This document shows positions 237 to 45,701 of a stretch of DNA of 61,048 nucleotides, in pieces. The notes beneath the pieces are model-generated. The model was not told the origin of the DNA. It saw only the letters and a program-made list of their open reading frames with translations, and did not search any database. The first letter of the stretch is position 1; each line of letters begins with the position of its first letter. The stretch spans positions 1 to 61,048 of the forward strand of contig JAICEW010000003.1 of the NCBI GenBank assembly GCA_025923995.1, given 5' to 3'. The DNA is from Vicinamibacteria bacterium. GTDB taxonomy: Bacteria; Acidobacteriota; Vicinamibacteria; Fen-336. Both the position numbers and the translations under genes were made by a program.

Positions 237-1551
237 GGGCCCCGAGGCGGACACGAGCCGGCCGCGTCTGCGGCGCACGCTGCGCACGGGCGACGGTCTG
301 GCCGTCGTCGTCGGCATCATGATCGGCTCGGGCATCTTCCGGACGCCGGGGCTGGTGGCCGCCGAGCTGGGGCGCGCGGACCTGACCTTCGTGGCCTGGG
401 TCCTGGGCGGCGGGCTGGCCCTGCTGGGCGCGCTGGTGTTCGCGGAGCTCTCGACCCGCCATCCGGAGGCGGGCGGCAAGTACGTCTACGCGCGGGAGGC
501 CTTCGGACCACGCGCGGGCTTCGTGGTCGGCTGGACGGAGGCCCTCACGTACTGCGCGGCGATCGCGGCCCTGGCCGTCGTCGCCGGCGAGTACCTGGCG
601 CGCCTCATGGGCTGGCCGGACGCGAGCGCGCGGCTGCTGGGGGTGGTGTTCGTCACGCTCTGCGCCCTGCTCAACCTCGGCGGCGTCGCGCTCGCGCGCT
701 GGACCCAGAACCTGGCGACCTCGGCCAAGGTCCTGGCGCTGGCGGCGGTCGTGGTGGCTGCGGCGCTGGCGGGCGACGGCGCCGGCTGGCAGGCCGCGGC
801 GCGCGAGACGCCGGCCGCGCTGGGGGCGCTCGCGATCGCCTTCCAGGCCGTGATCTGGACGTACTACGGCTATCCCGACGCGTCCAAGATCGCCGAGGAG
901 GTGGTCGAGCCCGGACGCACGCTGCCGCGCGTGTACGTGGCCGCCATCGGGCTGGTGACGGCACTGTACCTGCTGCTCAACGCGGCGTTCCTCTACGTGC
1001 TGCCCTTCGAGCGGATCGCGGGCTCCACGCTGGTCGCGGCCGACGTCATGCACGCGCTGTTCGGCGCGCGGGCCGGCGCGCTCATGGCGGGCCTGGCGCT
1101 GCTCGTCGTCCTGGCGTCCGTCAACGGCAACGTCTTCGTCACGCCGCGCGTGGTCTTCGGGCTGGCCCGCGACGGGCTGGCCCCGCGCGTCCTCTCCCGC
1201 GTGGGCGCGTCGGGCACGCCCTGGACGGCGACCATCCTGGTCGGCGCCGTCGCCGCGGGCCTGGCCGCCACCGGAACCTTCGAGCGCCTGCTGTCCTTCG
1301 CGATCGTGCTCGTCCTGCTGACGGACGGCTTCATGGTGGTCGTGCTGTTCCGCCTCCGCGCGCGGGGCCCGCGCGGCCGCTTCCGCGTCCCGGGATACCC
1401 GGCGGTGCCGCTGGTCTTCCTGGGGGTCTACGCCGCGCTCTTCGCGGCCACGGCGCGCGAGCAGCCGCGGCTGGTGGCGCTCACGCTCGCGGCGCTCGCG
1501 GTCGCGTACCTGCTCGGGGCCGCGACGGCCGGCCGGGCCGTTCAGGCGTAG
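211..1551 (+). CDS. APC-family amino acid permease
   Basis: VVGIMIGSGIF, ELSTRHPEAGGKYVYAREAFG, YYGY..AEEVVEPGRTLPR, ~12 hydrophobic segments; start moved to GTG at 211. Confidence 0.9.
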   Translation: MTTTPSGAEGPEADTSRPRLRRTLRTGDGLAVVVGIMIGSGIFRTPGLVAAELGRADLTFVAWVLGGGLALLGALVFAELSTRHPEAGGKYVYAREAFGPRAGFVVGWTEALTYCAAIAALAVVAGEYLARLMGWPDASARLLGVVFVTLCALLNLGGVALARWTQNLATSAKVLALAAVVVAAALAGDGAGWQAAARETPAALGALAIAFQAVIWTYYGYPDASKIAEEVVEPGRTLPRVYVAAIGLVTALYLLLNAAFLYVLPFERIAGSTLVAADVMHALFGARAGALMAGLALLVVLASVNGNVFVTPRVVFGLARDGLAPRVLSRVGASGTPWTATILVGAVAAGLAATGTFERLLSFAIVLVLLTDGFMVVVLFRLRARGPRGRFRVPGYPAVPLVFLGVYAALFAATAREQPRLVALTLAALAVAYLLGAATAGRAVQA

Positions 1552-2414
1552 CGGCGGGCGATCGAGAGCGCCTGCGGCCCGTAGTGGCCGCCGAACAGGA
1601 GGAAGTGGTTGAGCAGGTGGTAGAGCTGGTAGAGCGGGTTGCGCTTCCGCCAGCCCGCGGGCAGCGGCCACGCCTCATCGTAGGCGTCGAAGCAGCGCTC
1701 CGGGAACCCCCCGAACAGCGTCATCATCCCCAGCTCCATCTCGCGGTCCGCGTACGCGCAAGCGGGATCCACCAGCGCGGGCCCCCGCGTGCTGCCCAGC
1801 GCGTTGCCGGACCAGAGATCGCCGTGGATCAGGGCCGGAGGACCGTCGCCCACCACGTCCGGCAGCCGGGCGACGACGCGCTCGTAGACGCCGCGTTCGG
1901 CGGAGGACAGCCCGCGCTTCTCCGCGATCCGCGCGACCAGCGGCTCCAGGCGCCGTCGCGCGTAGAACTCCGCCCACGAGTCGAGCGGCGCGTTGGGCTG
2001 CACCGTGGTGCCGCAGTAGGTGTCCGCGTCGAACCCGAACCGCGGCGCGCTCAGGCGGTGCATCGCCGCGAGCCCCCGGCCCAGCGCCTCGCCGTCCAGC
2101 GGTCCCGGCTCCAGCAGGTCCATGACGATGAGCGCGGGCACGCCCGGCGCCGGCCCGCGCGCGACGATCACGGCGGGGATGGCGAGGCCCGAGCCCGCAC
2201 GCGCCATCGCGCGCAGGCCGTCCGCCTCGCGCAGGAAGAGGTCCGGCGGGCCCGAGTCGTTCCACTTCGCGAAGAACCGGCCGGCGGTGGTGTCGATGCG
2301 CGCGGCCGGGCTGATGCAGCCGCCGCCCACGCCCTGGGCGCCCAGGACCTCCAGCCGTGGGTCCGCCAGCGCCTCGCGCAGGGCCTCCTGGAGGGCCGCG
2401 CGCGGGCCCTGCAT
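1542..2414 (-). CDS. Fructosamine/ribulosamine-3-kinase family protein
   Basis: GGGCIS, FFAKWN, LIHGDLWSGN, DPACAYADREMEL, YQLYHLLNH. Confidence 0.92.
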   Translation of the reverse strand: MQGPRAALQEALREALADPRLEVLGAQGVGGGCISPAARIDTTAGRFFAKWNDSGPPDLFLREADGLRAMARAGSGLAIPAVIVARGPAPGVPALIVMDLLEPGPLDGEALGRGLAAMHRLSAPRFGFDADTYCGTTVQPNAPLDSWAEFYARRRLEPLVARIAEKRGLSSAERGVYERVVARLPDVVGDGPPALIHGDLWSGNALGSTRGPALVDPACAYADREMELGMMTLFGGFPERCFDAYDEAWPLPAGWRKRNPLYQLYHLLNHFLLFGGHYGPQALSIARRYA

Positions 2415-2908
2415 CAGGCCGGACCCGCGCCGCGGGCGGAGGTCGCGTCGCGCTCGAGCAGCGCGTCGAGCAGCTTCCGGCAGCAGACCTGGAGGACCTG
2501 GTACATGCGCTCGAAGCCGTCCATGCCGCCGTAGTAGGGATCGTCCACGTCGGGGCTCGCGCCCGGCGCGTCGTAGCTGCGCATCAGGCGGATCTTGTGG
2601 CGGTGCTCGGGCGGGCTGAGCCGCGCGAGCTCGCGCTCGTGCCCGCGGTCCATGGCCAGGATCAGGTCAGCGCGCGCGATGTCGGAGGTGTCGATCTCGC
2701 GCGCGATGCTGGTCACCTCGACCCCGTGCGCGGCGCCGAGGCGGCGCGTCCGCGGGTCCGCGGCCTCGCCCTCGTGGTACCCGTGGAGGCCCACCGAGTC
2801 GACCTCGAACCGGTCGAGCACCCCCCTCTCGCGCGCCATGTGCACGAAGAGGGCCTCGGCCATCGGCGAGCGGCAGATGTTCCCGGAGCAGACGAAGAGG
2901 ACGCGCAT
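2414..2908 (-). CDS. Low-molecular-weight protein-tyrosine phosphatase family
   Basis: VLFVCSGNICRSPMAE P-loop and DVDDPYYG; 1-nt overlap with the kinase start. Confidence 0.93.
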   Translation of the reverse strand: MRVLFVCSGNICRSPMAEALFVHMARERGVLDRFEVDSVGLHGYHEGEAADPRTRRLGAAHGVEVTSIAREIDTSDIARADLILAMDRGHERELARLSPPEHRHKIRLMRSYDAPGASPDVDDPYYGGMDGFERMYQVLQVCCRKLLDALLERDATSARGAGPA

Positions 2909-2920
2909 GCGCGGGCGATT

Positions 2921-3421
2921 CTAGCGGATCGGGACCTCGAGCACGGTGCCCACCACCAGCGGCCGCGTGGCGTCGGTCGCGGGCCACAGCGACGTCCAGT
3001 TGCGCCCGTCTCCCGTCAGGGCCGCCGCGATGCGCCAGAGGCTGTCGCCGGGCTGGACGCGGTACGAGACGACGCGCGGCGGGGCGCCCCTCGCGGATGA
3101 CGGAACGGTCGTCGGCGGAGGCGTTGCCGGCGCGGTGGCGGGGACGGAGGCCGGCACGGTGCGCAGCGACGCGGCGCTCTCGTCCGGCGCGTGCGCCGTG
3201 CCCGTCAGGAAACGGAGCGCCACGGACGCCACGATGGCGCCCGCGAGCGCCGCGAGGGCCAGGTGCCGCCGCGGCCGCGGCTCCGGCGGAGCGGAGCGAC
3301 CCGCCGCCTGCTCGAAGGGCCACCAGGCCGCGAGGGGCGTCTCGCAGCGGAAGCACTCCTCGGGCGGCGCGTCGTAGGCCTCCGAGCAGACGGGACAGCG
3401 CACCCGTGCGTCAGTTCCCAT
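2921..3421 (-). CDS. Zinc-ribbon / single TM / LysM membrane protein
   Basis: CPVC...CFRC, hydrophobic LALAALAGAIVASVAL, Pro/Thr linker, YRVQPGDSLWRIA...LVVGTVLEVP LysM; ATG at 3421 overlaps the Hsp70 end. Confidence 0.8.
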   Translation of the reverse strand: MGTDARVRCPVCSEAYDAPPEECFRCETPLAAWWPFEQAAGRSAPPEPRPRRHLALAALAGAIVASVALRFLTGTAHAPDESAASLRTVPASVPATAPATPPPTTVPSSARGAPPRVVSYRVQPGDSLWRIAAALTGDGRNWTSLWPATDATRPLVVGTVLEVPIR

Positions 3422-5654
3422 GGCGGGGCATGTCCTTCGGCACCACCAGGTCGGGTGCGGCATCGACGAGCGCGTCCGAGTCCTGCCAGGAGTCCCAGGC
3501 CGCGCTGCCCTCGGCGCGCAGCGCCGTGAGGGCGGCCTGCGCCTGCCTGACGGCCGACGCGTCGTTCGCCGCGAGCGCGTCGCGCAGCGTGAGCGACGCG
3601 CGACGCAGGCCGGCGCACAGCCGGGTCGGCATGCCCAGCAGGAACGACTCGCGGAAGCCCTGGATGGCCGCGCCCGCCGCGTCGTCCGTCTCCAGCGCTT
3701 CGCGGACGCGCGCGAAGCGTCCCTCGAGCGCCTCGGGGGGCGCGCCCGTCTGGAGCATCACGCGCAGGGCGCGCAGCCCTTCGACCGCCGTGTCGCGCGT
3801 CGCCGGGGGCAGCACGTTCCAGAAGGCGGGCAGCAGCTCCTGCTCGAGGAGCGCGATCCAACCCGAGATCCGCTGGCGCACCCGCTCGGCGGTGGGCTCG
3901 CCGGCAGTGCGTGCCCACTGCTGGCGATCCTCGATCTGGTCCCGCACGTCCTCCAGCAGCCGCAGCGCCGTCTCGGCGTGCGAGTGGGACCGGGACTGAA
4001 GCGCCGCGCGCGAGGCGTCGAAGCCCGCTCGAAGGCGCGAGACGAGCCCGCCGTCGGCCTCCTGGTTGGCCTCGAGCACCGCGGCGGCCTCCAGGTTCGC
4101 GTCGAGCACCTCGCTGAACAGCATGCGGCCCTGCTTGTCCAGGCTGTCGAGCGTGATGGGTTGCGAGTGCCCGTCGACGTGGCACACCGCCTGGACGGTC
4201 TTGTTCTCGTCGAGCCAGATCTCGACGTCCACGCGCGTGCCCTGCGCGGTCGGAGGCAGGTCGCGCCCGAACAGGCGCTGCGTCTGGAGCGGCACCTTGA
4301 CCCCGCTGCGCTCCGCGAAGGAGGACAGCGTGAGCCGGTAGATGGTCTGCGCGGGATAGCGCGTGAACGCGGGCAGGCCGAAGTGGGCGAAGTCCGGCGT
4401 GGGGACCTCGGAGTTGGCCTGGATGAGCTCGGTCCGCGAGCCGTCCTCGTGCAGCACGTCGAAGCCGTACGGGCAGATGCGCGCCAGCGTGGGCTTGGTG
4501 TTCGCGAAGATGGCCGCGCCCAGGGCGACGGAGTGCATCGGGTCCACGTCGTCGTGCAGGCGGGCCTGCGGGAGCAGGGCCTGCAGAGCCGTCCGAAAGG
4601 CGGGGATCCGGCTCGACCCGCCGACGAGCAGCACCTTGCCGATGCGGTCGCGCGCGACGTCGCGGTGCTCGAGGCACCGCGTGACCGTGTCCACCGCGAT
4701 CTCCATGAGGGTGGCGGTGGCACCCTCCAGCTCCGCCCGCGAGAGGGTGACGGCCGGCCAGCGCACCGGCGCGTTCGAGTCGGGGTCGAGCAGGCGCGGT
4801 GCCTCCACCAGCGTCTCGTCCCTGGAGCTGAGCGCCTCCTTGGCCCTCCGGGCCGTGCGCCGCAGCTCGTGCTGGTTCGCTTCGTCGCGCAGCAGGTCGT
4901 CGTCGAGGCGCGCCTTGCGCAGGGCGAGGCGCGCCACGAGCAGGTCGATGTCGTCGCCGCCCAGCGTGAGGTCGCCGTCGATCGCGATCTGCTGCCACTC
5001 GCGGCCGTCGCTCACCTGCACCGTGACGTCCAGCGTGCCCCCGCCCCAGTCGACGATCAGGATCGGCTCGTGCAGGCCGAAACCCACGATGTTGCCGAAC
5101 GCGAGCGCCGCCGCGCTGGGCTCGTCCAGCACGTGGCCGACGACCTCCAGACCCGCGAGCCGCGCCGCGTCCAGCGTGGCCTCCCGGTGCGGGTCGCCGA
5201 AGTACGCGGGCACGGTGATGGTCGCGCCGGTCACCGCCCGCTTGAGGCACCGCTCCGCGTGCGCCCTGGCCTCGCGCAGGATGTGCGCCTGGATCTCGTG
5301 CGGCCAGAAGCGCTTCGGCTGCGGCCAGCCCGCGTTCACCTCGAGCTGCAGGTCGCCCGCCAGCGCCTGCACGAGGCGGCCGCCTCCGCCTCCGGCGAAG
5401 AGCCGCTCGCTTCCCTCCTCGATCGCTCCCTCGTAGGTGCGACCCATCAGGCGCTTGATCGAGCGGATGGCGGCCGGCATGCGGTCGGCCTCGTCCCCCA
5501 CCTTGGGCGGGCCCGTGCTCCCCCGCTCGAAGCCGACGACGCTCGGGATGATGACGCCGCTGCCGCGCGGCATCACGTGCGGGCCGTCGTCGTAGACCAT
5601 GGCCACGACCGTGTTGGTGGTGCCCAGGTCGATCCCGATGGTCGTCGCAGTCAT
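3411..5654 (-). CDS. Non-canonical Hsp70 (DnaK-like) chaperone, 747 aa
   Basis: IGIDLGTTNT, TVPAYF, DEPSAAALAFG, VDWGGGTLDV, LGGDDID, VLLVGGSSRIP, DPMHSVALGAA; linker and substrate-binding domain diverged, long helical C-terminus. Confidence 0.9.
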   Translation of the reverse strand: MTATTIGIDLGTTNTVVAMVYDDGPHVMPRGSGVIIPSVVGFERGSTGPPKVGDEADRMPAAIRSIKRLMGRTYEGAIEEGSERLFAGGGGGRLVQALAGDLQLEVNAGWPQPKRFWPHEIQAHILREARAHAERCLKRAVTGATITVPAYFGDPHREATLDAARLAGLEVVGHVLDEPSAAALAFGNIVGFGLHEPILIVDWGGGTLDVTVQVSDGREWQQIAIDGDLTLGGDDIDLLVARLALRKARLDDDLLRDEANQHELRRTARRAKEALSSRDETLVEAPRLLDPDSNAPVRWPAVTLSRAELEGATATLMEIAVDTVTRCLEHRDVARDRIGKVLLVGGSSRIPAFRTALQALLPQARLHDDVDPMHSVALGAAIFANTKPTLARICPYGFDVLHEDGSRTELIQANSEVPTPDFAHFGLPAFTRYPAQTIYRLTLSSFAERSGVKVPLQTQRLFGRDLPPTAQGTRVDVEIWLDENKTVQAVCHVDGHSQPITLDSLDKQGRMLFSEVLDANLEAAAVLEANQEADGGLVSRLRAGFDASRAALQSRSHSHAETALRLLEDVRDQIEDRQQWARTAGEPTAERVRQRISGWIALLEQELLPAFWNVLPPATRDTAVEGLRALRVMLQTGAPPEALEGRFARVREALETDDAAGAAIQGFRESFLLGMPTRLCAGLRRASLTLRDALAANDASAVRQAQAALTALRAEGSAAWDSWQDSDALVDAAPDLVVPKDMPRHGN

Positions 5655-6079
5655 CGAGCCTCCGGTTCGTCGATCACGACCTCCGCGACGCGCAGGCGCG
5701 TTTCTCCCAGCAGGACGCCGGACCGCATCACCCCCGTCACGCGCGGACGGTCCAGGCCCGCGCGCCGCCGGGTCTTCACGACCCGATGGCGCGAGAGGTC
5801 CAGCGCCTCGCCGGCCGTGCCGTCCAGGCGGAGACCGGCCCGCTCCAGGCGCTCCTGCGCGGACCGGCGGACGAGGTCCAGCGCCCGGCGGGCGTCCTCG
5901 GGAAGCTCCGCGCCGTACTGCGAGACCGCGTCGCCGAGGAGCTCGTGGGCCTCGACCGCGGCCAGGGCCAGCTCGTGGAGCGCCTTTCGCTGCGACGCCA
6001 GGTCGCGCGTCGCGTCGCGGTGGCGCCGGGCCATGTCGCGGAACATCTCGCGGCCGCGATCGAGCGCGTCGTCGTTCAT
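5651..6079 (-). CDS. grpE: GrpE-like nucleotide exchange factor
   Basis: Helical N-terminus, then GEALDLSRHRVV...VTGVMRSGVLLGETRLRVAEVVI (GrpE GexFDPxxHxA...RxAxVxV pattern); AGGAG SD; ATGA overlaps on both sides. Confidence 0.7.
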   Translation of the reverse strand: MNDDALDRGREMFRDMARRHRDATRDLASQRKALHELALAAVEAHELLGDAVSQYGAELPEDARRALDLVRRSAQERLERAGLRLDGTAGEALDLSRHRVVKTRRRAGLDRPRVTGVMRSGVLLGETRLRVAEVVIDEPEAR

Positions 6080-7689
6080 TCGAGGCTCCTCAGGAAGAGC
6101 CGACACTCGTCGGGCGTCGGAGGGGCGAGCTGCGCGAACGTGACACGCACGAGGTCGACGAGGGGCCGTTCCAGGCCGGCCTCGTTCCCCAGCACCCAGA
6201 AGGGCGCCAGCGCCTCGGCGACGTCGGGCCGCTCGAGCACGAGGCGCAGCTTGCGGAACTCCTGCAGGCGTCCGCTCGCCTGCAGCGCGTGCTGCGCCTC
6301 CGCGCGCTGCGCGCCGAGCAGCCCGTACGGCGTGTCCAGCGCGAGGCTGGGCTCCGGCAGCTCGCGCAGCTGCCGGTAGACCGCGTCCGCCTGCTTCGAC
6401 GGGAGGTCGGCGGGCAGGGTGGCGGCGTCGAGGCCGCCGTGGATCGCGCGCGCCAGAGCGGTGCGGGCCTCGTCGAGCGCGGGCGGGGTGCGGCTCGCCC
6501 CCAGCGCGGACAGCGCGTTCATCGCGTGCCCACCCAACGCGTGCACGGCGGCGAGCGCCAGGCCGTCGTGGAGGAAGACCTCCCGGACAAGTCCCTGGCC
6601 GCCGGCGATCAGGCGCCACAGCGCCGTGGAGACGGCGCGCGTGTCGGGTCCGCCCCACTCCGCGGGCCAGGGCGCGGACGGCAGGCGCGTCGCCGGCGCC
6701 GCTTCCGCCGGCTCGCGGCCGTGCACGATCGCGTGCAGCTCGCCCGCTTCCTTCTCGTCGAGGGACCGGCTTCCCCACGACGGGATGCGCGCCTGCCGCC
6801 CGAGGAGGCGCAGGTCGCCCATGATCCCGCGCCGCACGTCGGTGGCGATCAGCGCGGCCGTCAGGTGCGCCGTGCCCACCACGTGTCCCGCGTCGGCGAG
6901 CGCGCGGCGGGCCAGCAGCAGCGGCTTCCAGGCCTCGGCGACCGGGGCGCCGCCGCGGCGCGGCGACGGCACGATCTTGTGCAGCGCTTCCGGAAGGAAG
7001 ACGCCCGCGAGCGCGGCACGCAGCACCAGCACGCGCACGAGCCCCGCCCCGTCCTTGATCCGGCGCGCCCGGCGCAGGGTCGCGCTCACCGTCGAGAGGG
7101 CGCGCGCGGGTCCGTCGTGCGTCACGAGCGCGGCCGCGGCGAGGGGCATGGCCTCCAGCGCTTCGGCCGAGCCGGCCCAGCGCTCCGTGTTCCGGCCCAG
7201 CCAGGAGAGGACTCCGAGCCAGCTCGCGCCCTCGCCCGTCGCGTCCAGCAGACGCGCGCGCAGCCAGTCGGCGACGGGGTCGGCGCCCCAGCGCGCCGGC
7301 AGCCGGTCGCGACCCACCGCGACCGCGATCGTCCTCTCGACCGAGGGGCGCTGCGGGTCGTCGTGCGGAACCGTGTCGAGCAGGGCCTGGGCCACGTCGA
7401 GTGCCTCGTCAAGCGCGCGGGCCTGGAGCAGCGCGACGAGCGAGACCGCGAGGGGGCCCCGAGGCCGGCGCTGCCGGACCGCGTCGTGGCGCACCTCGGG
7501 CGACGCCGTGGCCAGCGCCAGACGGCGCACCGCGGGCGGCTCGACGGCGAAGGCGGATCGATCGAGGGAGGACGTGTCCGGAACCGCGCCATGCCCGAAC
7601 GCGTCCCCAGCCGATCGGACGGACACAGGGGCCCGCGTCCTCCACCGCCCGCGCCGCACGACGGGGGGCCGTCGGAACAGGCCTACCGT
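6076..7689 (-). CDS. Hypothetical protein (~520-540 aa) in the Hsp70 operon; start uncertain (ACG 7689 or GTG 7626)
   Basis: Open frame filling the gap between coupled genes; stop overlaps the GrpE ATG; Ala/Leu-rich helical composition. Confidence 0.6.
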   Translation of the reverse strand, partial: TVGLFRRPPVVRRGRWRTRAPVSVRSAGDAFGHGAVPDTSSLDRSAFAVEPPAVRRLALATASPEVRHDAVRQRRPRGPLAVSLVALLQARALDEALDVAQALLDTVPHDDPQRPSVERTIAVAVGRDRLPARWGADPVADWLRARLLDATGEGASWLGVLSWLGRNTERWAGSAEALEAMPLAAAALVTHDGPARALSTVSATLRRARRIKDGAGLVRVLVLRAALAGVFLPEALHKIVPSPRRGGAPVAEAWKPLLLARRALADAGHVVGTAHLTAALIATDVRRGIMGDLRLLGRQARIPSWGSRSLDEKEAGELHAIVHGREPAEAAPATRLPSAPWPAEWGGPDTRAVSTALWRLIAGGQGLVREVFLHDGLALAAVHALGGHAMNALSALGASRTPPALDEARTALARAIHGGLDAATLPADLPSKQADAVYRQLRELPEPSLALDTPYGLLGAQRAEAQHALQASGRLQEFRKLRLVLERPDVAEALAPFWVLGNEAGLERPLVDLVRVTFAQLAPPTPDECRLFLRSLE

Positions 7690-8204
7690 ATGCCCCTCCT
7701 CATCTCGCGCAGCGTGCGACGCACCTGCTCGAACGGCTCCACGATCGTGAACGGGGCCATCTCGGCGATCGCGCGCTCGACGTGGCCACGCGCGCCGTCC
7801 TGCGCGCCCCGGCTCACCCAGAGGGCGAAGCCGTCGCCGCCGGCCGGCGCGATCGGCTCCCAGGCGGCCTCCTTCACCGCGCCGCTCTCCAGCGCGACCA
7901 CCACGACCGGCAGGTCGGTGGCGGTGCGGCGCAGCAGCAGCGAGGTGTCGTCGACCAGGAGCACGCTCGGCCGCACCTTCGCCTGGGCGACGAGGGCCGG
8001 CATCATGACGCGCGCCAGGAGATAGGCCTCGGTCCGCGGGCCGAGCAGGAAGCGCTCCAGCGGGCTCAGCGAGACGGCCTCGGTGTAGGCGAAGTCGAGC
8101 GGGTCCCCCTCGGGACCGACCACGAAGAGGCCGCCGACCCACGAGTGCCCGTCGCCCACCTGGGCCAGGTAGCCCAGCGCGCCGTCCCGGCCTGCGTCTG
8201 CCAT
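7683..8204 (-). CDS. Conserved-looking hypothetical protein, first gene of the Hsp70 operon
   Basis: GGAGG SD; globular sequence GGLFVVGPEGDPLDFAYTE...EPFEQVRRTL resembles an uncharacterised family (from memory, not searched). Confidence 0.7.
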   Translation of the reverse strand: MADAGRDGALGYLAQVGDGHSWVGGLFVVGPEGDPLDFAYTEAVSLSPLERFLLGPRTEAYLLARVMMPALVAQAKVRPSVLLVDDTSLLLRRTATDLPVVVVALESGAVKEAAWEPIAPAGGDGFALWVSRGAQDGARGHVERAIAEMAPFTIVEPFEQVRRTLREMRRGIR

Positions 8205-8356
8205 GTCCTCCCCGACGAGCCTCCCGCCCGCGTGAGCAGCTTGCCAGTATCGGCGCCTCGAGGCCAGCCGGGGTCCGTTCCGAGCGGCGAATGGCCATGG
8301 TGTGTCGCCTGCGAGTGGTCATTGCCGGCGGGGACGGCTGGGCCGATCGTGGTGTC

Positions 8357-9160
8357 GTGCGGTCCCTCGTCGCGTCCGTGCTGCCTGCCGCCCTCGCGTG
8401 GGCCTCCGCGTTCGGGGCGACCGCCGGCGGAGGTTCGTCGATGCCCGGTACCTGCTGTCCCGTCCTCGAGCTGCGCCAGTACACGCTCAAGCCCGGCGGC
8501 CGCGACGTCCTCATCGCGCTGTTCGAGGACCGGTTCGTGGAGTCCCAGGAAGAGCTGGGCATGCGGATCGCGGGCACGTTCCGCGACGCGGCGCGGCCCG
8601 ACCGGTTCGTATGGCTCCGCGGGTTCACCGACATGGAGTCGCGGCGCTCCGCGCTCGAGGCCTTCTACACGGGCCCGGCCTGGAAGGAGAGCCGGGAGGC
8701 CGCGAACGCGACCATGATCGATGTGTCCGACGTCCTCCTGCTGCGGCCCGCCGGCAGCGGCGCCCTGGATCTGCCCGCGACACGCGCGGCGCGCGGCGAG
8801 GAACCGGGGCCCGCGCGCGTGATCGTGGCGACGGTCCACTCCTTCCCCGGGCCGGTCGAGAGCACCTTCCCCACCTGGTTCGAGGCGCAGGCGGTCCCGC
8901 TGCTAGCGAAGGCGGGCGCACGGGTGCTGGGCCAGTACGTGACCGAGCCGGCGGCCAATACGTTTCCGAGGCTGCCGGTGCGCGAAGGGGAGAACGTCTT
9001 CGTCTGGTTCGCGGCCTACACCGACAGGGCGGGCGCATCGGCGCCGCTCGAATCGGTTCCCGGGTGGCGCGAGCGCATCGAGCCGCGTCTGCTCGGCGTC
9101 ACGAAAGGCCCGCTCCAGCGGATCGTGCTCGAGCCGACTCCGCGCTCGCTGCTCCGATAG
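8357..9160 (+). CDS. NIPSNAP-family protein (two domains), possible signal peptide
   Basis: CCPVLELRQYTLKPG, FVWLRGF, FYTGPAWK, LEPTPRSLLR; start uncertain (8291/8357/8441). Confidence 0.85.
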   Translation: MRSLVASVLPAALAWASAFGATAGGGSSMPGTCCPVLELRQYTLKPGGRDVLIALFEDRFVESQEELGMRIAGTFRDAARPDRFVWLRGFTDMESRRSALEAFYTGPAWKESREAANATMIDVSDVLLLRPAGSGALDLPATRAARGEEPGPARVIVATVHSFPGPVESTFPTWFEAQAVPLLAKAGARVLGQYVTEPAANTFPRLPVREGENVFVWFAAYTDRAGASAPLESVPGWRERIEPRLLGVTKGPLQRIVLEPTPRSLLR

Positions 9161-14801: not shown

Positions 14802-16739
14802 GTGAAGTACTGCGATACCTGCCACTCGGCCTACCCCGACGACTTCAACATCTGTCCGCGCGACCAGGGCGCGCTGCGCCAGGCGGCCGACCTCGTCCCC
14901 GGCATGGTGATCCGCGGCAAGTACGAGGTCCTCTCGAAGGTCGGTAGCGGCGGGATGGCGTCGGTCTACAAGGCGCGCCACGTCGCGTTCGGCGAGGTGG
15001 TGGCGCTCAAGCTGGTCGGCACCCGGCTCTCGGGCGACGCCGACTTCCTGAAGCGTTTCCGCAACGAGGCCGTGATCACGCGCCGGCTGCAGCACCCCAA
15101 CGCGGTGCGGGTCGAGGACCTGGACGCGACCGAGGACGGCCGCCCCTTCATCGTCATGGAGTACGTGGACGGCCGCAGCCTGCGCGAGCTGGTGCGCAGC
15201 GAGGGGCCGCAGCCGCTGGCCCGCGCCGTTTCGGTTTCGCGCCAGGTGTGCGCCGCCCTGGCGGCCGCGCACGCGCTGGGCATCACCCATCGCGACATCA
15301 AGCCCGATAACATCCTGCTCGGGCGCGGGCCCGACGGCGCCGAGCACGTGAAGGTGCTCGACTTCGGCATCGCGAAGGTGCGCGAGGCCTCCGAGGGCGC
15401 GGGCGAGGGGTACACCCCGACGCGCACGGGCATGATCGTGGGCACGCCGCAGTACATCTCCCCCGAGCAGGCCATGGGCAAGCGTGGGGACGAGGTGGAC
15501 GGCCGCGCCGACCTGTACTCGCTCGGCGTCGTGCTGTACGAGATGGTCACGGGCCGGCTGCCCTTCCACTCCGACACCGCGATGGGCATGCTGCTGCACC
15601 ACCTGCAGACGGCCCCCACTCCGCCCAACCTGGCCCGGCCGGACCTCGAGATCCCGGCGCCCCTCACCGACGTGCTCATGCGCGCGCTGCAGAAGGACCG
15701 CGACCAGCGCTACGGGAGCGCGACCGAGATGCTGGCGGCGCTCGACAGCGTGGCGGCGATGCCGCTGCCCGAGGCGCCTCCCCTGGTCTGGCCCGCGGTC
15801 CCGGTGATGACTCCCCCGCCCGTGCGCACGCCGGCCGGGACCTCGACGCCGCGGCCGCTCACGCCGACGGAGCTCGCCCAGATCGAGGCGCAGCCGACGA
15901 AGATGATGCCGTCCACGCCCACGCCGGCGCCCACGATGATGCAGGGCACGCCGACCGTGATGCAGCCGCCGCAGGCGCAGCGCCGGCGTCCGTGGTGGCA
16001 GTGGGTGGCCGCCAGCGGCGTCATCGTGTTCGCCATGTGCTCGGGGCTCTGCGCGCGCGCGTGCTCCGACCACGACGAGCGGCCGTCGGCCACCGCGCCG
16101 TCCGTGGCCGAGGTGGTCAAGGAAGCGATGCAGGAGGTCGACGACGACGGCATCAAGGACGCGGTCGAGGAGCGCCTGGAGGCCTCGAAGGCGACGTCCG
16201 AGTACGGGTTCTCCGTGCGGGTCGAGGCGGGCGTGGTGACGCTGGGAGGCGAGGCGCCGTCCTCCACGATCGCCCAGGTGGCGGAGGCGCTGGCCGAGAC
16301 CGTCCCCGGGGTCAAGAGCGTGACCAACCAGATCCGTTCACCCGACGAAGGACGCGGGGCGGGTGCCTCCGGGCGTCACAGGGGCGTGCCGCCGCCGGGC
16401 CCGGTCGGGCCCGTACCACGCGTCTCGCGCGCGCCGGGGACGCCTCCGATCGACCCGAACTCGCCCGAAGGCGAGGCGCTGCGTGAGCTGCTCAAGCGCG
16501 GCCGTGAGGCGCTGGCGGCCGACAAGCCCGAGGAGGCCCTCCGCCACTACGGCACCGCCATGTCGCTCGATCCGGGCAACGAGGAGGCCAACGAGGGCAT
16601 GCAGAAGGCCGCGGCCGCCTGGGGCAGGACGTGGCAGCGCCGCATCCCCTTCCCCCTCGGCCCGCGGGCACGGCCGCAGCCACCCGCCACACCGCCGCCC
16701 GCGCCCCTGCCCTCGCCCAGCCCGACGCCGGAGCCCTGA
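14802..16739 (+). CDS. Transmembrane Ser/Thr protein kinase: N-terminal Cys ribbon, kinase, TM, BON domain, TPR-like
   Basis: CDTC..CPRD; GSGGMASVY, HRDIKPDN, DFGIAK, GTPQYISPEQ; GVVTLGG...VPGVKSVTNQI BON pattern. Confidence 0.92.
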   Translation: MKYCDTCHSAYPDDFNICPRDQGALRQAADLVPGMVIRGKYEVLSKVGSGGMASVYKARHVAFGEVVALKLVGTRLSGDADFLKRFRNEAVITRRLQHPNAVRVEDLDATEDGRPFIVMEYVDGRSLRELVRSEGPQPLARAVSVSRQVCAALAAAHALGITHRDIKPDNILLGRGPDGAEHVKVLDFGIAKVREASEGAGEGYTPTRTGMIVGTPQYISPEQAMGKRGDEVDGRADLYSLGVVLYEMVTGRLPFHSDTAMGMLLHHLQTAPTPPNLARPDLEIPAPLTDVLMRALQKDRDQRYGSATEMLAALDSVAAMPLPEAPPLVWPAVPVMTPPPVRTPAGTSTPRPLTPTELAQIEAQPTKMMPSTPTPAPTMMQGTPTVMQPPQAQRRRPWWQWVAASGVIVFAMCSGLCARACSDHDERPSATAPSVAEVVKEAMQEVDDDGIKDAVEERLEASKATSEYGFSVRVEAGVVTLGGEAPSSTIAQVAEALAETVPGVKSVTNQIRSPDEGRGAGASGRHRGVPPPGPVGPVPRVSRAPGTPPIDPNSPEGEALRELLKRGREALAADKPEEALRHYGTAMSLDPGNEEANEGMQKAAAAWGRTWQRRIPFPLGPRARPQPPATPPPAPLPSPSPTPEP

Positions 16740-16746
16740 CTCGCGG

Positions 16747-19038
<2,292 letters not shown>

Positions 19039-19051
19039 GGGAACGGCTAGT

Positions 19052-20167
19052 CTAACGCCTCTCCTGGGCCGGATCGCCGCCGACGCAGATCGCGTCTTCC
19101 GGGATCCGCTTGCGATAGTCGTCGCCGCGCTGGTACGCCGACACGTGCACCCGCGGCTGCCTCGGCCAGGTGCGCCGCCGCCACAGGTTCATGCGCCGTC
19201 CCCAACGTCCCCTGGCCATGTCGTAGTGCTTCTTCCAGACCAGCTCGGCGACGTGCCAGAAGCCCTTCAGCGACTCGTGCATCGGAGCAGGCGTCGCGGG
19301 TTGCGGTGCGCCCGGCGCCAGGAGGGCGTCGCGACGTCCGCGATCACAGATGAGGCCCGCCTTCTCGGCCTCCTCCACCATCCAGCGCAGCGCCACGTCG
19401 GAAAGGCCTGTCTCGGCGTACCCGCCACCGACGTCGCAGTGGACGCCCGGGAACCAGACCTGCTCCTCGTCCACGGGGCCGTGCTCCTTCATCGACGGCG
19501 ACCGTCGCCAGAGGTTCGTGCGGAAGAACGCGCGCCGTTCGTCGATCGCGATCGCGTGGCGGCCGATGTGGATGCTGGGGTTGTCCGACACGAACGGCAG
19601 CTTGAGGGGGTTCTCCACCCAGCCGACCGAGCTCACGGTGTCCCACACGCCGACGAAGTGCGGCGCGCACCCCGTCCAGGACATGTCCTTCTTGAAGGCC
19701 TCGGCCAGCTCGAAGTACTGCTTGCGGGCCTGCTCGTCGCGCCCCTCGCTCCGCTTGATGCCCATCAGCATGCGGATGGCGTAGGGCACGAGCGGCTCGT
19801 TGTCGGGCCGGATGAGCCCGTACATGTGGAGCAGCGACGCGACCGCGCGGACCGTGTAGGCGCCGCGGCTGAACCCGAACAGGTACACGCGGTCGCCGGG
19901 CTGGTAGGTCCGCATCAAGAAGACGTAGGCGTCTCGCATATCGTCCGCGAGGCCGTAGCCGAAGGCGAGCCCCATGGCCTTGGTGACCTTGCGCGCGAAG
20001 GAGGTGAGCGCGCCCGCCGGCTCCCTCGTGCCCAGGCCCGGGTGGTAGTAGGAGACCTGCGTCTGCGGTTCGTGGGCGAGGATCGAGTAGAGCTTGACGA
20101 CGTTCGTGTTGTTCCTGGCGAACTCGTTCGCCGTACCGTCACAGCACACGACGATGTTCCTGGGCAT
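19052..20167 (-). CDS. DUF2235 (Tle1-like) alpha/beta hydrolase
   Basis: IVVCCDGT, YHPGLGT, LFGFSRGA, GVWDTV, HAIAIDERR, WFPGVHCDVGG. Confidence 0.9.
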   Translation of the reverse strand: MPRNIVVCCDGTANEFARNNTNVVKLYSILAHEPQTQVSYYHPGLGTREPAGALTSFARKVTKAMGLAFGYGLADDMRDAYVFLMRTYQPGDRVYLFGFSRGAYTVRAVASLLHMYGLIRPDNEPLVPYAIRMLMGIKRSEGRDEQARKQYFELAEAFKKDMSWTGCAPHFVGVWDTVSSVGWVENPLKLPFVSDNPSIHIGRHAIAIDERRAFFRTNLWRRSPSMKEHGPVDEEQVWFPGVHCDVGGGYAETGLSDVALRWMVEEAEKAGLICDRGRRDALLAPGAPQPATPAPMHESLKGFWHVAELVWKKHYDMARGRWGRRMNLWRRRTWPRQPRVHVSAYQRGDDYRKRIPEDAICVGGDPAQERR

Positions 20168-22451: not shown

Positions 22452-23627
22452 TCAGCTGGCCGCCACCCGGCCCAGCCGGACCATGGACAGGGCGCCCAGG
22501 AACGGGCCGATCGCGAGCGTCGTGAACACCCATCGCCATCCCAGGTGCGCGGCCAGCAGCGGCAGGACCTGCAGCGAGACCACGGTCACGGCGAACCCGA
22601 TGCCGTTCTGGACGGTGAGCGCGGTCGCGGTGTACTCGGGCGGCGCGTAGCGGGCCGCGAGCGCCGAGAACTGCGGCGAGTCGGCCACGACCACGACGCC
22701 CCAGGCCACGAGGTAGGCGTAGAGCGCCGGAGCCGGCAGCGCGTGCGCGAACCCGGAGAGCAGGCACAACGTGCCGCTGGCGAGGAGCGCGGCCAGCGCC
22801 ACGCGCCGCTCGCCGACGCGGCGCGAGATCCAGCCCCCGCCCGCGCAGCCCAGGAAGCCGGCGGCGACGGTGGCGAAGCAGACGAGGGCGATCTCGGGCC
22901 GCGCGGCCTTCCCCGCCAGGAAGAAGCCGACCAGGCCCCACAGCGCGTACAGCTCCCACATGTGCCCGAAGTAGCCCAGCGCGGTGTAGCGGAAGGCGGG
23001 ATCGCGGAAGACGCGGCCGGCGGCGCGCGCGTCGAACGGCGCCCGCGTGCGCAGGTACGGGCCGTCGCTCAGGAGGACGACCAGGAGGCCGCCCGCCACG
23101 GCGGAGACGGAGGCGACGCCCGCCAGCAGGCGCCAGTCGCGCCCGGCGCCGACCGCCTGGATCAGGTACGGCGAGGCGGTGCCGAGCGCGAGCGCGCCGA
23201 CCAGGACGCCGAGGCGCCAACCCAGCCCCTCGCGAAACCAGGACGCCACGATCTTCATCCCGACCGGGTACACGCCCGCCAGCGTGACGCCGGCGAGGAA
23301 CCGGAACACGAGCGCGGTGCCCAGCCCGGACGTGACCCAGGCGAAACACGCGTTGAACGCGGCGCCCAGCAGCGCCGAGACCAGGAACACGCGCCGCGCG
23401 TTGAACACGTCGGCGATGTTGAGTACGGAGTACAGGAACGTCCCGCTGATGAACCCCAGCTGCACCGCGACCGTGAGCCAGGCCGCCTGCGCGTCCGACA
23501 GCGCCCACAGCTCGCGCAGCGCGGGCATGGCCGCGGTGCCCGAGAACCAGATGGAGCCCGCCAGGAGCACCGCGAGCGAGACGACGGCCAGCGCGCGGCC
23601 GGCCGCGCCGTCCTCGGCCGGCGTCAC
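22452..23627 (-). CDS. MFS transporter
   Basis: ~12 TMs, LAGVYPVGMK, GHMWELYA, VADSPQFSA; GTGA overlap with the upstream gene. Confidence 0.88.
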   Translation of the reverse strand: MTPAEDGAAGRALAVVSLAVLLAGSIWFSGTAAMPALRELWALSDAQAAWLTVAVQLGFISGTFLYSVLNIADVFNARRVFLVSALLGAAFNACFAWVTSGLGTALVFRFLAGVTLAGVYPVGMKIVASWFREGLGWRLGVLVGALALGTASPYLIQAVGAGRDWRLLAGVASVSAVAGGLLVVLLSDGPYLRTRAPFDARAAGRVFRDPAFRYTALGYFGHMWELYALWGLVGFFLAGKAARPEIALVCFATVAAGFLGCAGGGWISRRVGERRVALAALLASGTLCLLSGFAHALPAPALYAYLVAWGVVVVADSPQFSALAARYAPPEYTATALTVQNGIGFAVTVVSLQVLPLLAAHLGWRWVFTTLAIGPFLGALSMVRLGRVAAS

Positions 23628-25363
23628 TCTCCCAGCGCCTGGTAGCGGACGAGGCGGTAGCGGTAGCGCTCGGTCGCGCGCATCGAGCGTCCCAGCCGCT
23701 CGTGCAGGTCCTCGGTCCAGGCGTCGTAGCGGTCGACGAACGCGTCGGCCGCCGCCTTGTCGCCCGCGGCCTGGATGGCGAGCACCTTCTCGAGCATCGA
23801 GCCCACGACCGCGGGGTAGCGGGCGTAGTGGATCTTGAGCCGCCCGGTCCCGGAGTCGAGCTGCAGCAGCCCGCCCTCCAGGAACCAGTTCATCTGCATC
23901 AGCTGCATCGTCTGGTAGGGCTGGCCGCGCCGCGGCTGGCTCTTCTGGAGCACGCGCAGGATCCCCGCCGCGTGGACGTCCTTGAGGCGCGCGTCGTCGA
24001 AGTCGCCGCTCGCGCGCAGCGCCTGCGCCGCGAACAGCGAGACGAGGTCGGACTTCAGCTCCTCGAACAGGTCCGCGTTCTCCTGCAGCGCGACGGCCAG
24101 GTCGCGCCCGCTGCGGTCGCGGTCGGGACCGAGGTAGTGGCCGATCTCGTGCCACAGCGTCCGGTAGAAGCTGCCCTCGCTGCCCAGGTCGCCCGTGTGC
24201 TCCGGCGCCACCGCCGCCGCCCACGTGGCCTGCGAGATCGCGAACAGGTCGGGGTGCGTCATGATGTTGGAGCGCAGCAGGATCGTGCGCCCGTACTTGC
24301 GCGTGATGCGCGCCTCGTTGGGCAGGATCGAGGCGGTGTTGGTGCCGCGCGCCTGGCCGAAGTCGGCCACCACGTTGTAGACGCCGACCGGCAGGTTCTC
24401 GCGCACCCTGCGGTGCGGCTCGTACGGCAGCGCGTCCTCGATCGACTGGATGCCGCGCAGCGCGGCGCGCAGGGTGCGCGTCCGCTCGGCGTCGCGGATC
24501 AGCACGCTGTGGCTCATGAAGGACTTCACGCCCAGCAGCTCGTCGTCGTACGTCTCGAAGGAGCCGATCTGGGCGTTCAGGTTCCCGAACGACCCCATGA
24601 TCCAGGACGCGTCGCCCGACTCGTAGGCGTTCGTGAGGAAGTCGCGCCGGCGATTCTCGAGGTAGTCCGCCAGGTCCTCGTCCTCCCGTCGCACGGCAGC
24701 CGCGGCTTCCTCCAGGCGCGCGCCCGCCTCGTCCAGGTCGTCCGCGTACGCGAGCGCGTACGGGATCGCGTAGAAGCCGGCGGCCCCGGCACGGATGTGC
24801 GCCTCCAGGGCCGGGTGCAGCGCCGCCAGCGCGGGACGCGCCGCCAGCGCGGTGAGGTCGGCCGGGATGTCCGCGGCCTCGCGCACCACGGTGCGGCCGT
24901 TCAGGATGTCATCCCTGGCCTCACCGTGCTCCTCCAGGAACGACTCGAGGCGTGCCTTGTCGATGCCCCACGGGTACACGTTCTTGCCCGGCACGATCGG
25001 GTCGACGGGCAGGAACGGCTCGCGCTCGTTGTCGAGCGTGGTTGCGATCGGCCCCTGCCAGAGCCGGTACAGCGTGAGCAGGTCCTCCCGGCGCGGCTGG
25101 CGCGCGGCCAGGGCACGGTGGGCCTCCAGCGCCTGGCGATGGTTCTGCCGTTCGTAGATCCGCTGCAGCGGCGGCCCTGCCGCGAGCAATGCGTCCAGGG
25201 CGCGGCGCTCGCCCGGCGTGAGCGCTTCCAGCGAGGGCGCGAGCGTGAGGACGAGCGTCTTGTCGAGGATCGGGCGGGTCTGCTCCGGACCCCACTCGCG
25301 CACGGCCCCCAGGGCCGCCGCGGAGGTCAGGACCAGCCCCGCGAGGACGTGGCGCACGCGCAT
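23624..25363 (-). CDS. Secreted M49-family (dipeptidyl peptidase III-like) zinc peptidase
   Basis: ETYDDEL, ASILPNE, HEIGH (HExxH), EELKSD; signal peptide from MRVRHV. Confidence 0.8.
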   Translation of the reverse strand: MRVRHVLAGLVLTSAAALGAVREWGPEQTRPILDKTLVLTLAPSLEALTPGERRALDALLAAGPPLQRIYERQNHRQALEAHRALAARQPRREDLLTLYRLWQGPIATTLDNEREPFLPVDPIVPGKNVYPWGIDKARLESFLEEHGEARDDILNGRTVVREAADIPADLTALAARPALAALHPALEAHIRAGAAGFYAIPYALAYADDLDEAGARLEEAAAAVRREDEDLADYLENRRRDFLTNAYESGDASWIMGSFGNLNAQIGSFETYDDELLGVKSFMSHSVLIRDAERTRTLRAALRGIQSIEDALPYEPHRRVRENLPVGVYNVVADFGQARGTNTASILPNEARITRKYGRTILLRSNIMTHPDLFAISQATWAAAVAPEHTGDLGSEGSFYRTLWHEIGHYLGPDRDRSGRDLAVALQENADLFEELKSDLVSLFAAQALRASGDFDDARLKDVHAAGILRVLQKSQPRRGQPYQTMQLMQMNWFLEGGLLQLDSGTGRLKIHYARYPAVVGSMLEKVLAIQAAGDKAAADAFVDRYDAWTEDLHERLGRSMRATERYRYRLVRYQALGE

Positions 25364-25397: not shown

Positions 25398-26060
25398 TCA
25401 GTGGCCGGAGCTTCCCCACAGCTCCTGGAGCCGCGCGTCGCGCCCGCAGCCGGTGCGGTACAGGCGGTACTGCATCGGGTTCTTCTTGTAGTAGTCCTGG
25501 TGGTACTCCTCGGCCGGCCAGAACGGGCCCGCCTCCTCGATGGGCGTGACGAGCGGCTGCTTGAAGCGCTTCGTGCGCTCGACCTCGCCCTTCGACGCCT
25601 CCGCGGCCTTCCGCTGCGCGGCGTCGTGCACGAAGATGCCGCTGCGGTACTGCTCGCCCACGTCGCAGAACTGCCGGTTGCGCACGGTGGGGTCGATGTT
25701 GTGCCAGAACACCTCGAGCAGCTTCTCGTAGCCGACCTTGGTCGGATCGAACACGATCCGCACCGCCTCCGCATGGCCCGTGCCGCCCGAGGAGACCTGC
25801 TCGTAGGAGGGGTCCTGCTGGGGGCCGCCGGTGTACCCCGAGGTGACCGAGAGCACGCCGGGGATCTTCTCGAAGGGCGGCTCCATGCACCAGAAGCAGC
25901 CGCCGGCGAAGGTCGCGATGGCGGCGCCGGGCGGCACCGCGGGCATCGCCGCCTTGGGTTTCCCGTTTCCCGCCGGCCCCTTCGCCGCGCCACTCCCCAC
26001 CAGCAGCGCCACCCCGACGGCGACCGCCAGGGCGGTCATGATCCCCAGACGCATCCTCAT
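25398..26060 (-). CDS. msrA: Peptide methionine sulfoxide reductase A, exported
   Basis: FAGGCFWCME, SGYTGG, AEEYHQDYY; N-terminal signal/TM. Confidence 0.95.
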   Translation of the reverse strand: MRMRLGIMTALAVAVGVALLVGSGAAKGPAGNGKPKAAMPAVPPGAAIATFAGGCFWCMEPPFEKIPGVLSVTSGYTGGPQQDPSYEQVSSGGTGHAEAVRIVFDPTKVGYEKLLEVFWHNIDPTVRNRQFCDVGEQYRSGIFVHDAAQRKAAEASKGEVERTKRFKQPLVTPIEEAGPFWPAEEYHQDYYKKNPMQYRLYRTGCGRDARLQELWGSSGH

Positions 26061-26076
26061 GCAGACCCTCCCAGAC

Positions 26077-26172
26077 GGTGGAACGCCGCCGGCGGCCTTC
26101 CTCATCCCGCCGCCTCGTCCTATGATCCCCCGAGGGGCCGGGAATCCAAGACCCGTCCCTTGGCGTTCCACC
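26077..26172. promoter_or_regulatory. Divergent ECF-type promoters for msrA and msrB
   Basis: Identical 11-mer GGCGTTCCACC on each strand (26077-26087 minus, 26162-26172 plus), each ~20 nt downstream of CGGGA. Confidence 0.55.
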
Positions 26173-26176
26173 CTGT

Positions 26177-26719
26177 ATGAAGAAGATCCTGCTGGCGGTC
26201 CTCGTCCTCCTCGGCGCGTCGAGTGCCTTCCTCCTCCGCGCGGGCGGGTCGGACAAGAAGGCGGGCCCGGTCGCGGGCACGACCGTCCGGCTGTACTCGG
26301 AGGAGACGAAGGGCTACGTGAGCCTGCCCGCGGTCGTGAAGACGGCCGCCGAGTGGAAGGAGCAGCTCAGCCCGCTCCAGTTCCAGGTGACGCGCGAGGC
26401 CGGCACCGAGCGCGCCTTCACCGGCGAGCTGTGGAACAACCACCGCAAGGGCCTCTACCGCTGCGTCGCGTGTGGAACCGACCTGTTCCGGTCGGAGACC
26501 AAGTTCGAGTCGGGGACCGGCTGGCCGAGCTTCTGGAAGCCGATCGCGCGCGAGAACGTCGAGGAGCGCAGCGACTGGTCGATGGGCATGCAGCGCACGG
26601 AGGTGCTCTGCCGCCGCTGCGGCGCGCACCTGGGCCACGTCTTCGACGACGGACCCCGGCCCACGGGCCTGCGCTACTGCATGAACTCCGCGGCGCTGCG
26701 GTTCGTGCCCGGCGAGTAG
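26177..26719 (+). CDS. msrB: Peptide methionine sulfoxide reductase B, exported, Zn-binding
   Basis: GTERAF, CVAC and [26 protein letters not shown]; signal peptide. Confidence 0.95.
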
Positions 26720-33828: not shown

Positions 33829-34488
<660 letters not shown>

Positions 34489-43370: not shown

Positions 43371-43380
43371 CGGCGAAGCG

Positions 43381-45675
<2,295 letters not shown>

Positions 45676-45701
45676 CCCGGGAGCCGTCCGCCCGGGCGGC
45701 G

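Follow-up and report, generated by a model that had tools for sequence, protein, structure and literature searches.

The 61,048-bp window analysed here is one entire contig (JAICEW010000003.1; G+C content 73% throughout) of the Vicinamibacteria bacterium assembly GCA_025923995.1. It carries five head-to-tail open reading frames on the minus strand, running from 8204 down to 2921, that we call A to E and that are built around a diverged Hsp70 (D) and a GrpE-like protein (C). We tentatively read this set as a five-gene operon that lies on the chromosome of an uncultured Vicinamibacteria lineage, is inherited vertically and encodes a specialised, J-protein-independent Hsp70 machine with private partners at the inner membrane. 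The partners would be A, for which an Endonuclease V (EndoV)-like fold is predicted, B, apparently an all-alpha orphan, and E, a putative membrane protein that combines a zinc (Zn) ribbon with a LysM domain.

Gene A (7683..8204) encodes 173 amino acids (aa) and starts with an ATG that has GGGGAGG 5' of it. It is followed on the same strand by B (6076..7659, with its 3' end at 6076; 516-538 aa by choice of start), C (5651..6079; 142 aa), D (3411..5654; 747 aa) and E (2921..3421; 166 aa, or 180 aa from an alternative ATG at 3463). The G+C content at third codon positions is 0.92-0.96 in the five frames (0.96 in A, 0.93 in B), equal to that of adjacent genes. Thus, A to E are all coding, and none looks foreign in composition. 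An earlier note on this DNA, made from the letters alone, had described five co-directional genes with overlapping ends. The co-directional arrangement is confirmed, and each frame has a strong coding signal. As for the overlaps, those of 4 nt (B/C), 4 nt (C/D) and 11 nt (D/E) are real in the sequence, and the 7-nt overlap that the note gave for A/B, provided that its ACG start was right, exists only if B starts at ACG 7689, a start that is neither supported nor necessary. The note had further recognised an Hsp70 with ATPase motifs, an altered linker, a diverged substrate domain and a long helical tail, a GrpE-like gene paired with it, and a Zn-ribbon-transmembrane (TM)-LysM protein. All three are borne out below: D by Pfam and an alignment with DnaK, C by matches in Pfam, NCBIfam and BLASTP, and E by its motifs, its hydrophobic segment and its LysM and PHROG matches. 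Promoter, terminator and Rfam scans of the operon region returned nothing, with no terminator-like site within 1300-8700. None of the proteins A to E contains an HPD motif or a P-loop (Walker A).

Judged by its sequence, protein D is a complete Hsp70, with an ATPase domain, a linker, a substrate-binding beta domain and a lid. The nucleotide-binding domain (residues 1-385; 4500..5654, minus strand) matches PF00012 and keeps the catalytic residues. Residues 386-747 (3411..4499, minus strand) comprise the linker KPTLARICPYG, a diverged substrate-binding beta domain, the lid and an extended helical tail. The Pfam match scores 222.3 bits (cut-off 20.6) over residues 6-433, and a search of the PDB retrieves DnaK structures at an E value of 7.5e-51; the alignment to Hsc70 reaches residue 524, and residues 521-747 have no sequence match in the PDB. 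When aligned with E. coli DnaK, the columns D8, K70, E171, D194, T199 and D201 do not vary, and D should therefore have a working ATPase.

Other parts of D depart from DnaK. Its linker is six residues shorter, with KPT------LARICP opposite GDVKDVLLLDVTP in DnaK; LARICP stands where DnaK has VKDVLLLDVTP, and the hydrophobic DVLLLD is missing. The RICPYG that takes its place (R392-G397) is invariant in 11/11 members of the D family. In the column of DnaK R167, which we take to be a J-domain contact, the D family has His, Pro or Asp. The substrate cleft is changed as well (DnaK M404 to D, V436 to Q). Beyond the lid motif EAN, which D retains, come about 110 additional residues; most of these are conserved, and the stretch closes with PDLVVPKD..HGN. 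Scores against the DnaK equivalogs fall below their cut-offs (NF001413, 230.5 against 648; TIGR02350, 227.1 against 822.55), as does that against the HscA equivalog (222.4 bits, cut-off 708.55). In tblastn searches of plasmids, the only matches of full-length D were ordinary dnaK genes, which are about 35% identical to it in the ATPase domain. The DVLLLD linker is given as a mark of bona fide DnaK in PMC13580251. The low equivalog scores, the changes in the linker, the cleft and the R167 column, and the longer tail indicate that D is a 'DnaK derivate', in the sense in which PMC13580251 uses the term, and not a housekeeping DnaK.

We accept protein C as a short or truncated GrpE-like protein and presumed nucleotide exchange factor, with a caveat on the strength of the match. 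It is 142 aa long, against 197 aa for E. coli GrpE. It scores 25.0 bits against PF01025, for which the cut-off is 25.8, with an E value of 1.7e-5 and HMM positions 35-163 of 165 covered. NCBIfam adds five weak GrpE matches (E 0.002-0.03). BLASTP against E. coli GrpE gave an E value of 0.004 and placed residues 64-136 of C on residues 128-192, a stretch of 73 residues in the C-terminal beta domain.

Protein E is predicted to be bitopic in the inner membrane, with its Zn ribbon facing the cytoplasm and its LysM domain in the periplasm. The four-Cys ribbon (3344-3397, minus strand) is formed by CPVC at residue 9 and CFRC at residue 23, 14 residues apart. The TM helix (3206-3262, minus strand) corresponds to hydrophobic residues 54-72 and is preceded by RPRRH; by the positive-inside rule, this would place the ribbon in the cytoplasm and the LysM in the periplasm. 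A linker rich in Pro, Ala, Thr and Ser follows the helix (residues 76-118) and leads to the LysM domain (2930-3067, minus strand; PF01476), whose match to HMM positions 1-15 of 43 scores 22.2 bits (cut-off 20.9). The same region matches the endolysin family phrog_380 at an E value of 1.7e-6, and E has weak matches to LysM chains in the PDB. A complex prediction for full-length D with residues 1-53 of E gave a score of 0.00 (mark 0.32); the fold of the E part was itself uncertain, and the result counts neither way. We rejected E as an anti-sigma factor, as the ribbon is a plain four-Cys one and no sigma factor gene is adjacent; the only one, an extracytoplasmic function (ECF) sigma factor at 27352-27939, lies 19 kb away.

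Protein A has no match in Pfam, NCBIfam, PADLOC or PHROGs, and even at E<=10 Pfam gives no hit for any of the 17 close members of its family (0 of 17). Structure prediction from a 17-sequence alignment gave a model of moderate confidence (predicted local distance difference test score, pLDDT, 65.9; predicted template modelling score, pTM, 0.57). When the model was searched against the PDB with Foldseek, EndoV chains came out on top (best E 8.8e-6, probability 1.00, query template modelling score (TMq) 0.29-0.55), from mouse, human, Bacillus, Thermotoga, E. coli, Ciona and Streptomyces. The next matches were Argonaute/PIWI proteins and the C-terminal domain of UvrC. Taken together, these matches point to the EndoV branch of the RNase H fold, and with moderate confidence we assign A an EndoV / RNase H-like fold on the basis of this model. 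By sequence, A does not fall within the Endonuclease V family (PF04493), and it is about 50 residues shorter than EndoV. Profile alignments by hhalign against E. coli EndoV were non-significant (probabilities 0.1% and 3.8%); the weak 3.8% alignment pairs VLLVDD of A with LVFVDG of EndoV and EPF with PEPT. The strand that carries the first catalytic Asp in EndoV reads AQVG in A when compared by eye.

A profile search of 1.84 billion representatives shows that A belongs to a large family, with 855 clusters (at 50% identity) at E<=0.001 and 85 at 1e-10. Nearly all members are stand-alone proteins of 160-250 aa, typically about 175 aa. One long protein from this search (P0070, 2930 aa) was discarded as a GST repeat artefact. 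The wider family has no name and no Pfam, NCBIfam or PADLOC model: a Pfam scan of 55 of the 150 listed matches found no credible family and one sub-threshold DUF6167 match, and among 99 members (97 from the listed 150) NCBIfam and PADLOC each gave one stray hit (1/99). The ESM Atlas returned, as a lead only, unnamed Planctomycetota clusters at a score of 0.95.

An alignment of the 99 members has the consensus G-R-P-L-E-F-H-C-T..P-V ... D-L-x-E-P-F-x-R-I. Its conserved positions include P35 (99/99), E156 (95/99), E/D37 (91/99) and D/E85 (79/99), and position 50 is Gln in 71/99. R34, C40 and H39 occur in 63, 62 and 59 of the 99 members, respectively; the window's A has D34, A39 and Y40. Since it lacks all three of these residues, A appears to be a diverged branch in which a site shared by the family is partly lost. 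Without the His-Cys pair and the Arg, A is less likely to be an active nuclease than a module for binding or regulation.

Searches of Pfam, NCBIfam, PADLOC and PHROGs gave nothing for protein B either. Its model consists of helices only (pLDDT 72.2, pTM 0.70) and Foldseek found no match for it, the best E values being 0.097 in the PDB and 0.024 in BFVD. A profile search against PDB sequences gave no hit, hhalign against the Hsp70 family gave nothing, and the best score in the ESM Atlas was only 0.88. Based on its predicted structure, B thus seems to be an all-alpha orphan without a structural match. The motifs that are invariant among its relatives include PWPxxWGGPD, HDGLA and RIPxWGSR. We considered B as a J-like protein and rejected it, as its motif, HDG, differs from HPD and DnaJ models gave no match; a GTPase role for A or B was dropped, as neither has a P-loop.

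The start of B has four candidates: GTG 7626 (the database gene model, 516 aa), GTG 7659, CTG 7680 and ACG 7689. An Arg-rich peptide, LFRRPPVVRRGRWRTRAP, is encoded in frame at 7627-7689 (minus strand), upstream of the database start, and the N-termini of the gene models of three of the 13 B relatives (P0011, P0012 and P0014) match it, which indicates that B probably starts at or upstream of 7659. Upstream of 7659 the frame contains no ATG, GTG or TTG, and translation may begin at a rare start codon, for example CTG 7680 or ACG 7689. The N-terminus of B is Arg-rich and probably disordered.

Close relatives were counted by word-seeded searches of 5.8 billion proteins, with the window's own entries excluded. 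These searches gave 17 relatives of A (16 at 60-89% identity and one short fragment), 13 of B (44-68%) and 12 of the C-terminal half of D (41-90%). All come from metagenomes, and the three that have a name are Vicinamibacteria (Acidobacteriota). Mean column identity is 77% for A and 78% for D, within one narrow lineage. We judged co-occurrence by equal reported size of the relatives' longest contig. A contig size is held in common with a D relative by 6 of the 13 B relatives; among the 17 A relatives, three have a size in common with a B relative and three with a D relative. Sizes 28476 and 10762 carry A, B and D. Identities drop in step across the families: at size 28476 they are 77% (A), 67% (B) and 87% (D tail), at size 6016 they are 61% (A) and 60% (D), and at size 5839 they are 44% (B) and 66% (D). 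Sizes 24978 (D) and 24632 (A) are unmatched. This pattern suggests that A, B and D travel together.

Beyond these metagenomic relatives, a scan for B with two patterns in 185,579 species, each represented by one genome, gave only a false positive, so that, as far as the two patterns reach, the set is rare among sequenced species. The false positive is an off-frame chance match within a thiamine-pyrophosphate enzyme gene of Micromonospora (L001, 10001-10171). As it illustrates, genomes of high G+C content can give false tblastn confirmations. Searches by tblastn of 72,556 plasmids found nothing for A, for two further members of its family or for the tail of D, and a search of 50,697 phage records found nothing for an A-family member.

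We scanned the 55 genes predicted in the window outside the operon against Pfam. They include no DnaJ, HrcA, second Hsp70, second GrpE or recognisable defence gene; the absence of an HPD-containing DnaJ and of hrcA, claimed in the earlier note, thus holds for the operon and for the 61-kb window. The genes with a Pfam match have ordinary chromosomal functions, which makes this a housekeeping context. Their products include an amino-acid permease, a NIPSNAP protein, pyrroloquinoline quinone (PQQ) propellers, tetratricopeptide repeat (TPR) proteins, two Ser/Thr kinases, methionine sulfoxide reductases, ClpS, ClpA, N-end-rule transferases, lipid enzymes and ParB. Directly downstream on the minus strand, 12 nt after the stop of E, lies a gene for a low-molecular-weight phosphotyrosine phosphatase (2414-2908; PF01451, 148 bits), which overlaps by 1 nt a gene for a fructosamine kinase (1542-2414, minus strand; PF03881, 234 bits). 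These two genes may share the operon transcript and are probably a separate unit.

Several of the more distant genes deserve mention in their own right. At 19052-20167 (minus strand) there is a full-length match (275 bits) to the catalytic domain of Tle1-like phospholipases of type VI secretion. This gene is flanked by the gene of a TPR-containing Ser/Thr kinase on one side and by a PQQ-propeller gene and then an ankyrin-repeat gene on the other; the window showed no further genes for type VI secretion. The two Ser/Thr kinase genes are convergent, with ends 8 nt apart (14802-16739, plus strand, with a BON domain; 16747-19038, minus strand, with TPRs). A complete N-end-rule cluster occupies 43056-47140 and encodes ClpS, ClpA, a leucyl/phenylalanyl-tRNA protein transferase and, on the opposite strand, an arginyl-transferase-like ATE. 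Two MsrA genes and one MsrB gene lie within 9 kb (25398-26719 and 33856-34488), and the ECF sigma factor gene stands between these loci, followed by two genes without a family match. A 579-aa protein encoded at 23624-25363 (minus strand) has only a sub-threshold match to the zincin-like MPTase-PolyVal family (25.5 bits against 27.5).

If the five genes form one machine, as we tentatively propose, C would reset D by recycling its nucleotide. A and B would be private clients or adaptors of D that replace a J-protein in targeting, and D could use ATP to remodel or switch an A-B assembly. E would tether or gate the activity of D at the inner membrane in response to the peptidoglycan state, in a DjlA-like manner. 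The dedicated, envelope-linked Hsp70 module proposed in the earlier note is upheld as far as the domain make-up and the private GrpE-like gene go, and its putative tie to the envelope comes from the position of E in the operon.

Several points weigh against this reading. The partnership of A to E is read from gene order rather than from physical contact; the envelope link comes only from E lying in the operon, and sensing by E is a proposal, made by analogy. The Pfam LysM match of E spans only 15 residues, C falls just below the Pfam cut-off for GrpE, and phmmer against the PDB gave no GrpE for it. For A, the model is of moderate quality (pLDDT 65.9), the TMq to EndoV is 0.29-0.55 and the profile match is non-significant; moreover, the acidic positions 37, 85 and 156 are kept across its family, so that an enzymatic role is possible. 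The evidence that A, B and D co-occur is indirect, as it comes from contig sizes and takes in neither C nor E, and two sizes break the pattern: 257440 has A and B and no D, and 121184 has B and D and no A.

The alternative with the most to be said for it, although we consider it unlikely, is that the genes serve in conflict or defence as an NTPase-chaperone type of system, in which E would report a breach of the wall, Hsp70 and GrpE would act as a threshold switch, A would be the nuclease effector and B a scaffold or inhibitor. The fold predicted for A is of a nuclease type (EndoV, PIWI, UvrC C-terminal domain), its family conserves the three acidic positions, and there are precedents for Hsp70 proteins in such systems: about 14% of the neighbourhoods of GAP1-N2 GTPase conflict systems have HSP70 and GrpE and act close to the membrane, with peptidoglycan-binding domains and Zn ribbons (PMC7159879), and the Hsp70-like CnuD occurs with helical repeats in CoCoNuT restriction systems (PMC11090510). 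Yet the GTPase and GAP1, or McrB, that define those systems are absent here, and the window's A lacks the R34, H39 and C40 that most of its family keeps. The five proteins gave one marginal PADLOC match (D, E 0.0045) to set beside the single stray in the A family, and their PHROG matches are limited to the LysM region of E. The composition is like that of the neighbours, none of the other 55 genes of the window is a defence gene, and the tblastn searches of plasmids and phage records were null for the A and D queries used. High conservation within a narrow lineage is also unlike fast-evolving, patchily distributed defence genes. The earlier note had named conflict or defence as one option and co-location with a defence island as a check on its idea; the surroundings proved to be housekeeping and no such island is there, which, with the conservation and the want of a convincing PADLOC hit, weakens that option. 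A more ambitious idea is a switch that needs no J-protein and is coupled to the cell wall: a LysM-anchored E would hold or release D, whose ATP cycle, reset by its private GrpE, would unlock the EndoV-like A from the all-alpha B, a new class of chaperone-gated, envelope-triggered response. We regard this as a long shot; if it were true, the 855 clusters of the A family would mark related, unseen systems in Planctomycetota and other phyla.

Without any signalling, Hsp70 and GrpE might instead assemble or position A and B at LysM-marked sites, as an accessory of envelope building or cell division, comparable to HscA/HscB for iron-sulfur clusters. The housekeeping context, the vertical and conserved inheritance and the LysM and TM anchor of E would suit such a role, and Hsp70s specialised for a single task are known (PMC13580251). 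Nevertheless, the window contains no genes for peptidoglycan synthesis or division, the set is too rare for a general envelope function (no true B relative by two patterns in 185,579 species), and the same data fit the machine proposed above equally well; we hold this alternative to be quite improbable. We rate lowest the view that this is not one system, and that A and B, Hsp70 and GrpE, and E are functionally unrelated and merely on one transcript. Such a view could point to C and E being linked by operon membership alone, to two evidently unrelated genes that follow on the same strand after 12 nt, and to the two long contigs that hold only two of the three traceable genes. Against it, the ends of B and C, of C and D, and of D and E overlap, by 4, 4 and 11 nt; A, B and D have similarly few relatives (17, 13 and 12), which recur at the same contig sizes and diverge in parallel; and D, as it is not a standard DnaK, needs a private role.

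The specialised Hsp70 machine that we favour bears on a gap described in a 2026 review, which calls bacterial Hsp70 paralogues beyond DnaK and HscA unexplored 'dark matter' (PMC13580251). As a compact and conserved case, the operon could show how an Hsp70 is targeted or triggered without a J domain. The facts added here are the predicted fold of A and its large unnamed family, the orphan status of B, a narrow and apparently vertical distribution and the housekeeping context. The A family, with 855 clusters and a probable EndoV-like fold as modelled, is worth describing whatever the role of the operon.

The earlier note knew of no characterised system with this architecture, and this is in line with our literature search, which found no described system with this gene set; supplementary tables, where such neighbourhoods might be found, were not covered. 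The set resembles the canonical DnaK-DnaJ-GrpE system in the full Hsp70 domain order and ATPase residues of D and in the GrpE-like gene directly upstream of it with a 4-nt overlap. It differs in that the operon and the window lack a J-protein and HrcA, and in the changed linker, R167 column, cleft and tail of D. Another parallel in gene organisation is sglK, which lies in one operon with the grpE homologue grpS. HscA, HscC, SglK and StkA are extra Hsp70 paralogues that serve particular tasks and are not induced in the manner of general heat-shock chaperones (PMC13580251, PMC8265645); in Myxococcus, SglK and StkA serve motility and surface polysaccharide (PMC8265645). HscA and HscC work with J-proteins, and their lids are shortened (PMC13580251), whereas the lid of D is extended and neither the operon nor the window has a J-protein. 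For none of these four paralogues are partners similar to A, B or E described.

The GAP1-N2 conflict systems share with the operon a neighbourhood of HSP70 and GrpE together with Zn ribbons, TM helices and peptidoglycan-binding domains, and occur mainly in Actinobacteria and Firmicutes (Kaur et al. 2020, PMC7159879). Here, unlike in those systems, there is no DO-GTPase, GAP1, FNIII-DnaJ or TPR partner, and A and B have no Pfam match at E<=0.1; in particular, neither a double GTPase of the TRAFAC clade nor GAP1 was matched by A or B at that threshold or by the other genes of the window. CnuD of the CoCoNuT systems, an Hsp70-like protein with a nucleotide-binding domain, a substrate-binding domain and HEAT-like repeats, is like D in its added helical C-terminal region and in belonging to a multi-gene operon (PMC11090510). 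In that source its ATPase motifs are degenerate and it always occurs with a McrB-like GTPase and DUF2357, whereas D keeps its catalytic residues, and neither of these type III CoCoNuT partners is present in the operon or the window.

For E, the working model is DjlA, a membrane-anchored J-domain co-chaperone of E. coli DnaK whose overexpression switches the Rcs envelope pathway (PMC11709261). By analogy, E could likewise be bitopic in the inner membrane and recruit the activity of the Hsp70 there. It differs from DjlA in having a Zn ribbon where DjlA has a J domain (E lacks an HPD motif and has no DnaJ hit in Pfam), along with a putative periplasmic LysM domain. Thus, what is already familiar is an additional Hsp70 that serves one task together with a dedicated exchange factor, and what appears to be new is its association with an EndoV-like A, an orphan B and a Zn-ribbon-TM-LysM protein E, with a rebuilt linker and no J-protein in the operon or the window.

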